Virus genome (UHGV): UHGV-1364457
DNA from: a virus
Direction: 5' to 3' (one strand)
Length of the DNA stretch: 60,235 nucleotides
The notes under the pieces were generated by a model. The model searched no databases, had not been told where the DNA came from, and saw only the letters and a program-made list of their open reading frames with translations. Of the stretch, positions 40,180-40,219 are shown one piece after another (the first letter of the stretch is position 1; each line of letters opens with the position of its first letter). The translations under genes were made by a program, and so were the position numbers.

Positions 40180-40219
40180 CTCTCTCTCTCTCTCTCTCTC
40201 TCTCTCTCTCTCTCTCTCT
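40180..40219. repeat. (CT)20 dinucleotide microsatellite
   Basis: Perfect 40-nt CT alternation, intergenic, at the edge of a low-GC patch. Confidence 0.95.

Follow-up and report, generated by a model that had tools for sequence, protein, structure and literature searches.

What is an uninterrupted run of CT dinucleotides doing in the immunity region of a temperate phage, and does its length matter to the phage that carries it? The run in question, a (CT)20 tract at positions 40180–40219, lies in the window, which is the whole 60,235-nucleotide stretch of viral DNA (UHGV-1364457) analysed here. An initial annotation, made from the sequence alone, had reported a perfect (CT)20 at exactly these coordinates, and both direct reading and Tandem Repeats Finder verify it (period 2, 20.0 copies, 100% matches, 0 indels). 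All 15 of the overlapping (CT)6 matches in the window fall within the tract, other AG/CT runs are no longer than 4 units, and even (CT)6 arises in 0 of 100 dinucleotide-preserving shuffles, so that the tract stands far above chance. The same annotation called such tracts rare, and rare they are, but not unique: among the 2.9 million contigs of IMG/VR there are at least 120 stretches of (CT)15 or longer, many of them from giant-virus genomes.

The window is the genome of a temperate siphovirus, with an integrase gene (26815–27918), genes for a terminase, portal, capsid and lambda-type tape measure, for RecT and a PDDEXK exonuclease, and for CII-like regulators, NinG and a DnaD-like replication protein. 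Bilophila or Desulfovibrio (Desulfovibrionaceae) is the probable host, an assignment drawn only from source labels, since scans of species-representative genomes with a DNA pattern and with a protein pattern gave no match. Among these labels, P0037 is assigned to Bilophila wadsworthia and P0022 to a Phascolarctobacterium MAG, and terminase relatives with 76–79% identity are labelled Desulfovibrio or Bilophila; a search with the exact integrase sequence returned nothing but a phage contig of 6 kb. Within the tail-gene region, low-GC patches (34–42% GC) contain two Bro-N/ANT antirepressor-like genes and the gene of an AAA ATPase (7392–8342 (+), 11773–12723 (-) and 13116–14306 (+)), which look like accessory or defence-type insertions. 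The early-left region includes a PemK/MazF-like toxin gene (35983–36396 (-), Pfam E = 1.5e-9) that is conserved in relatives, and for which no partner antitoxin was identified. Between the early-left genes and the tRNA array is an interval of ~1 kb (about 37500–38550) with ~50% GC, no convincing ORF and no Rfam match, where several relatives have a TerB-domain gene instead. One of the five tRNA genes, called by ARAGORN as a 101-nt tRNA-Phe (anticodon aaa) at 39410–39510 (-), is unusually long, with an odd anticodon and the lowest Rfam score of the five (38.6 bits), and may reflect a long variable arm, an intron or a miscall.

The tract was at first described as lying at the boundary of the immunity region, between the tRNA array and a low-GC segment upstream of a CI/Cro-like pair. 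The array, the low-GC block and the CI/Cro-like pair are all correct in that description (Table 1), but the tract is inside the low-GC island rather than at its edge, the GC content being 31.5% at 40001–41000 compared with about 50–57% in most of the window. An Rfam scan of 36000–43000 identified tRNAs only, apart from a sub-threshold miRNA match over the tract that was judged meaningless, and no plus-strand ORF in the ORF list crosses it. Nor is the tract intergenic: it occupies codons 22–34 of a small minus-strand gene, near the 5' end.

Table 1. Coordinates of the tract, of the gene that contains it and of neighbouring features in the window.
Feature	Coordinates	Strand	Remarks
tRNA array	39023..39669	-	5 genes
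Putative early-left promoter	39871..39899	-	TTGACA, 17 nt, CACACT; followed by conserved TTCTCACGACGAAC
Intrinsic terminator	39932..39961	-	9-bp stem with 5 G-C pairs, then T8; directly after the full-length stop
Cargo frame, 69 codons	39969..40179	-	Intact (IARAKKDVERK...YLDSIGC); stop TGA 39971-39969
ORF as found (OFF allele)	40153..40281	-	42 aa; ATG 40281-40279, stop TGA 40155-40153
Hypermutable tract	40180..40219	-	(CT)20 on the plus strand, (AG)20 on the coding strand; translated as (ER)n
Shine-Dalgarno sequence	40289..40294	-	AAGGAG, 7 nt 5' of the ATG; from reading of the sequence
Putative promoter of the switch gene	40328..40356	-	-35 TTATCT 40356-40351, 17-nt spacer, -10 TATAAT 40333-40328; by consensus only
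Terminator-like hairpin and T-run	40409..40432	-	Hairpin 40432-40416; 5' of the putative promoter
Divergent ORF	40443..40724	+	93 aa (up to 115 aa with alternative starts); no family match
Repressor-like gene	41147..41611	-	153 aa, HTH and coiled coil
Cro-like gene	about 41696-41941	+	Divergent from the repressor-like gene

A short minus-strand ORF that translates the tract as (ER)n had been noted, and it is present as a 42-aa frame consisting of a 21-codon leader (MSKLRSFSSVETLYTSPIPSE), the ER tract and an out-of-frame tail, HCACQKGC. It is, however, only the truncated 5' part of a gene of ~100 aa, the other 69 codons of which (the cargo) are intact and out of frame here; the reading frame of this cargo, designated type A, is backed by the identical full-length proteins P0001–P0004. 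Because the repeat unit is 2 nt and the tract begins 62 nt into the coding sequence, every change of one unit shifts the 69-codon frame relative to the ATG. Simulated tracts of 15–29 units give products of 100–108 aa when the number of units is a multiple of three and of 40–51 aa when it is not, and 21 units, which is the window sequence with one CT added, would restore a 104-aa protein. The window allele, with 20 units, is OFF and one unit short of ON. No internal start codon for a separate C-terminal product was found in the cargo frame in the window.

The signals around this gene were examined by sequence reading (Table 1). The putative promoter has a perfect -10 and a weak -35 (3/6 consensus), and its region is retained in distant family members. 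The hairpin on its 5' side, equivalents of which are present in relatives, would insulate the gene against read-through from the repressor operon, and the terminator behind the full-length stop codon has a predicted folding energy of -18.1 kcal/mol (z = -5.7). The suggestion in the initial annotation that tract length might alter promoter spacing is not supported, as the tract begins within the coding sequence, 62 nt past the ATG, and is spanned by no promoter-like element and no -35/-10 pair. A promoter-spacing or other cis-regulatory role can also be imagined for the plus-strand gene at 40443–40724, since the tract is on the same DNA, ~120–220 nt upstream of that ORF. The promoter-like hexamers of the ORF, TTGCTG (40339–40344) and TATACT (40363–40368), however, come more than 115 nt past the tract, which is not flanked by a -35/-10 pair, and the plus-strand ORF is not conserved beside distant family members, where unrelated genes take its place while the tract stays with the minus-strand gene; a cis-regulatory role of this kind is scarcely credible.

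Relatives of the locus were collected by searching the flank and the conserved leader DNA against IMG/VR and human-gut metagenome assemblies, and further locus contigs were added by searching with the full-length protein. All samples with a stated origin are from the human gut, and the deposited-phage collection holds no relative of the locus. Loci with type-A cargo and flanks that are 95–100% identical have tracts of 6, 9, 12, 12, 12, 18, 19, 20, 21, 22, 22, 24 and 24 units, and six loci with at most 2 substitutions per ~780 nt of flank have 20, 12, 12, 18, 22 and 21. The closest relative, L002, is colinear with the window over 12.3 kb, in which there are 31 substitutions and a single indel, the latter being a 16-nt difference in the tract. 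Among closely related phages the length of the tract changes much faster than its flanks. A further 4 or 5 contigs break off within tracts of 42–55 nt (up to at least 27 units). Contigs ending inside the AG tract include L012, L016, L017, L022, L024 and L030/L033, and one 44-kb viral contig in IMG/VR has both of its ends in an AG tract; such breaks are an indirect hint of frequent switching within a clonal population.

Both frame states are found in nature. When the count is limited to loci found by DNA or by frame-independent leader or cargo peptide patterns, 7 of the 17 with complete tracts are ON and 10 are OFF, each contig representing one consensus allele, some at low coverage (1.8–6x), and dinucleotide tracts being prone to PCR and sequencing stutter. 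The 10 OFF loci were assembled independently, in several studies and with several assemblers, and 3 truncated products of OFF alleles turn up in the protein library as well. Because the tracts break assemblies and gene callers report truncated ORFs (P0161–P0163), the family is recorded as a mixture of proteins of 39–51 and 94–109 aa. The comparison of repeat number across isolates that the initial annotation had suggested thus yields a variable tract of 6 to at least 27 units in near-identical phages, with ON and OFF alleles, in agreement with its view of a slippage tract that alters the frame of an (ER)n ORF; the tract is neither invariant across strains nor outside the predicted transcription unit, which includes it.

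Profile searches recovered 39 family proteins in a 5.8-billion-sequence collection and 12 cluster representatives among 1.84 billion, the search of these representatives returning nothing beyond the family itself. Pfam, PHROGs and PADLOC, searched with both the whole protein and the cargo alone, gave no annotation for any family member. Leaders fall into three or more types (MSKLRSFSSVE.., MSKRLSSHAAKRSRTSYCTPKKKVG and MFKHLSSFAIKHSKRSSHTP) and cargos into six (A–F), the latter 25–45% identical to one another and with the motif F.ELL..S.YT.RDD....L..FL in common. Leaders and cargos are combined variously, the joint is always a pure AG tract, and within each type the proteins differ in length by steps of 2 aa. 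The codons of the tract are exclusively GAG and AGA, and the repeat is therefore conserved at the DNA level. In leader type 2 (L010, L025–L032) a run of A8–A14, encoding KKK, stands directly 5' of the (AG)n, so that two mutable tracts are found in tandem.

The tract is at the same time a polypurine/polypyrimidine mirror repeat that may be able to form H-DNA, and it could serve as a recombination joint or as a barrier to transcription or replication, with frame switching as a by-product. Similarity between loci of different cargo stops ~15 nt past the tract, and one leader type is found with cargos A, B and D, with cargo D reading the post-tract DNA held in common (CATTGCGCGTGCCAA) in another frame, one that is a dead end in the window; both observations fit a recombination joint. 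A role in DNA structure nevertheless leaves unexplained the series of alleles differing by single units on identical backgrounds, as well as the constant position of the tract in the ORF just past a conserved start, and we consider it very unlikely that such a role is the reason for the tract. A structural or recombination role is in any case compatible with a frame switch and may coexist with it, and is not a true alternative.

The variation could also be without consequence, the tract being a neutral, unstable microsatellite in a dispensable gene, with frame changes invisible to selection and no adaptive switching. With 7/17 loci ON, the fraction is near the one third that neutral drift of tract length would give (7:10 against a chance ratio of 1:2), no functionally characterised homologue of the protein was found, and the adjoining 137-aa gene is nonsense-mutated in the same phage, which indicates that accessory genes here do decay. 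Against this, the cargo frame is intact in all of the OFF alleles and in 14 of 14 type-A cargos overall, and pN/pS within cargo types is 0.21–0.35, pairs of ON and OFF alleles included; by these measures the cargo is a protein-coding sequence under purifying selection that is kept intact while switched off. An unselected tract should moreover be interrupted or lost, yet pure AG is kept across types that have diverged to 25–45% identity, and the gene is bracketed by a putative promoter and terminators of its own. Neutral instability is thus an unlikely account, and the combination of a selected, intact cargo with a conserved mutable tract argues for a contingency locus rather than a decaying gene.

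The predicted structure of the full-length product (AlphaFold2, moderate confidence, pLDDT 68) has a disordered N-terminus and helices at residues 20–57, 62–80 and 89–95. No signal peptide-like or membrane segment is seen on reading the leader sequence, Foldseek searches of PDB and BFVD gave nothing significant (no match better than E = 1.5), and no homology to RexA/RexB or to known exclusion or defence proteins was found with Pfam, PHROGs or PADLOC, or with Foldseek against PDB and BFVD. The product is an orphan small helical protein, apparently cytoplasmic. In the predicted model the tract opens the long helix of residues 20–57, and full-length proteins with 2 to at least 8 ER pairs exist, as would be expected if the ER tract were a charged helical spacer that varies in length by in-frame tuning, the out-of-frame alleles being assembly or sequencing errors. 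Such a spacer is highly improbable, given that 10 of the 17 DNA-ascertained loci are out of frame in independent assemblies and that the codons are never other than GAG and AGA. The protein is also kept in the absence of a tract, P0021 having lost it in frame with the gene left open and P0160 having a different leader without any tract, and the ER tract is thus dispensable for an open gene. Assignment to the charged ER/K single-alpha-helix proteins was separately considered and rejected, since the codons are not mixed, many alleles are out of frame and some relatives have no tract.

In the direction of transcription, the switch gene of all relatives follows the repressor-like gene and immediately precedes a promoter-like TTGAC..17 nt..CA(C/T)ACT, and this placement, with the repressor gene on one side and the putative early-left promoter on the other, is syntenic in the window and at least 20 relatives. 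In L042, where nothing separates the gene from the repressor gene or from the promoter, TGCCA-N2-TGGCA palindromes are common to the putative early-left promoter and the repressor's own upstream region, which supports an early-left promoter under repressor control. A search for the early-left palindrome in the repressor/cro intergenic region of the window gave matches at chance level only, and no operators were identified in the window, where repressor control of the neighbouring promoters is presumed. The putative early-left promoter is followed by an invariant TTCACGACGAAC(GGGGAAGGCGAAC) and then by a leader of ~200 nt that runs into tRNA or early-left genes. In the window this leader (39670–39899 (-)) is purine-rich, GC-rich and non-coding, and ends at the tRNA array; the promoter-leader block is also found in L010, L026–L029, L038 and L042, where it is conserved despite different repressors, and the early-left transcript could thereby include an RNA element that acts, for example, in antitermination or processing.

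The gene directly downstream of the repressor gene (40696–41109 (-)) encodes 137 aa, including a membrane helix at the N-terminus. It is intact in L003, L004, L007, L008, L013 and L019, and is cut to 37 aa in the window and L002 by a GAA-to-TAA change at about 40996–40998. With this nonsense codon and the OFF tract, both accessory genes of the immunity region are off in the phage represented by the window.

Cargo and repressor types co-vary in a small sample, made up of the window repressor gene (41147–41611) and relatives (L008, L019, L025, L027–L031). Cargo A is found with a 153-aa repressor, R153 (7 loci), cargo B with the 144-aa R144 (2 loci, repressors 71% identical), cargo D with the 140-aa R140 and cargo F with the 136-aa R136 (3 loci), and cargo E accompanies a variant of R136 with 62% identity; the genes between cargo and repressor are exchanged independently. 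This co-variation may reflect functional coupling, although it is no proof of it, since linkage within the immunity block would equally be expected to produce it for any gene enclosed by the repressor gene and its left operators. It also bears on a wider reading, which we hold only tentatively and regard as rather doubtful, that the promoter, the short leader and (AG)n constitute a portable cassette that recombination has passed around the temperate phages of gut Desulfovibrionaceae and that subjects an immunity-region gene to stochastic ON/OFF control, with the cargo as an immunity-specific modulator. Under that reading, a cargo that always matches the repressor type would point to modulation of, for example, repressor activity, induction or superinfection immunity.

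Taking the locus as a whole, we conclude that a translational phase-variation (contingency) switch of a temperate phage has the tract as its mutable element, a conclusion that we put at a probability of about 0.78. The initial annotation had offered the tract as a candidate phase-variation switch for a lysogeny or moron gene, and this proposal is backed by the allele series and by ON and OFF alleles on near-identical flanks. Slipped-strand mispairing in phage or prophage replication would add or remove CT units, and only multiples of 3 units would leave the gene ON, all other numbers turning it OFF. Levinson and Gutman reportedly observed in 1987 that in E. coli a dinucleotide tract of 40 bp, carried by an M13 clone, changes frame with frequencies at the percent level, and 20 units on a phage genome should accordingly be highly unstable. 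With its own putative promoter and terminators on both sides, the gene would act as a self-contained unit, and such an insulated unit, placed like rexAB after the repressor gene and before the putative early-left promoter, most likely has its expression in the prophage state. Populations of lysogens or phages would then always include subpopulations with and without the small helical protein. This protein probably acts in the interaction of the prophage with its host or with other phages, through exclusion, defence, or modulation of immunity or induction. The data show the tract itself, the dependence of the frame on its length, the diversity of alleles on near-identical backgrounds, the retention of the tract across a diverged family and the purifying selection on the cargo, whereas we infer promoter activity, expression in the lysogen, the rate of switching, its reversibility within a population and the function of the protein. 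OFF need not mean silent, as frameshifted (AG)n constructs have been found to give leaky expression (bioRxiv 10.64898/2026.04.01.715767).

The individual elements of this switch have counterparts in bacteria. The sabA and hopZ genes of H. pylori have CT repeats in the 5' coding region and are phase-switched, and the variation described here has the same CT/AG unit, site just past the start codon, frame-dependent ON and OFF states and strain-variable unit number as these genes and oipA. In oipA (hopH), too, CT repeats in the 5' coding region form a switch operated by slipped-strand mispairing (PMC10564699). The H. pylori genes, however, encode surface adhesins with signal peptides, on the chromosome of a bacterium that is without MutS/MutL, whereas the gene described here is phage-borne and encodes a small orphan protein; its tracts are longer (to at least 27 units), and the sequences are not homologous. 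AG repeats of a Mycoplasma mod gene switch frame by the same mechanism (PMC3498834), and there, as here, an AG tract within the ORF leads to premature termination in two of three frames. An A-run upstream of the AG tract is a second switch in M. bovis mod1 (bioRxiv 10.64898/2026.04.01.715767), an arrangement that the A8–A14 run before (AG)n in leader type 2 resembles. Unlike mod, the gene belongs to the immunity region of a phage and is only ~100 codons long, and its product is not a methyltransferase and implies no regulon.

Simple-sequence-repeat contingency loci are also known from Neisseria, Haemophilus and Campylobacter (PMC5084427, PMC8437040; theory in PMC3546556), and the phage locus has in common with them a hypermutable repeat, natural ON and OFF alleles and a downstream ORF that stays intact when OFF. 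Frameshifts are reversible in those loci, and are presumed to be so here. The bacterial repeats differ in being mostly homopolymers or tetra- to heptanucleotide units, in chromosomal surface or restriction genes of pathogens.

Among phages, the closest parallels concern position rather than mechanism. The rexAB genes of lambda lie between cI and pL, with rex co-transcribed with cI, and the switch gene is similarly situated between the repressor gene and the putative early-left promoter; it differs in having no homology to rexA or rexB and in being parted from the repressor operon by a terminator, whereas rex rides the cI transcript. The moron concept is said to have been introduced by Hendrix and co-workers for lambdoid phages, and the switch gene resembles morons in its deviant GC content (31% vs 52%) and in having neighbours that are interchangeable between relatives, and would also do so in having a promoter and terminator of its own; to our knowledge, the known morons are not repeat-switched. 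Variation systems of phages include the invertible tail-fibre segments of Mu (Gin) and P1 (Cin), the diversity-generating retroelement of BPP-1 and the Dam/OxyR-controlled gtr operons of P22-like prophages. These likewise make a phage-borne gene differ stochastically within a clonal population, but they do so by inversion, mutagenic retrohoming or epigenetic control, and no recombinase, reverse transcriptase or Dam/OxyR sites take part at this locus.

The mechanism is thus a known one, and what is new is its carrier, the immunity region of temperate phages of gut anaerobes, together with an orphan, diversifying protein family and a modular leader. A literature search, which was not exhaustive, found no description of a repeat-switched gene family native to the immunity region of temperate phages. 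Repeat-driven contingency loci are a textbook trait of host-adapted bacterial pathogens, and here the device is found in the immunity region of temperate phages of the human gut. Once switching is confirmed, a pure dinucleotide tract just past a start codon would offer a simple signature by which conditionally expressed phage accessory genes may be recognised in metagenomes. Should the doubtful cassette reading prove true, the phage would use a contingency locus to hedge its behaviour in matters of lysogeny, a strategy known to us from bacterial pathogens but not from the immunity regions of phages. Confirmed switching would also mean that prophages can make genetically identical lysogens differ in a gene that adjoins the controls of lysis and lysogeny.
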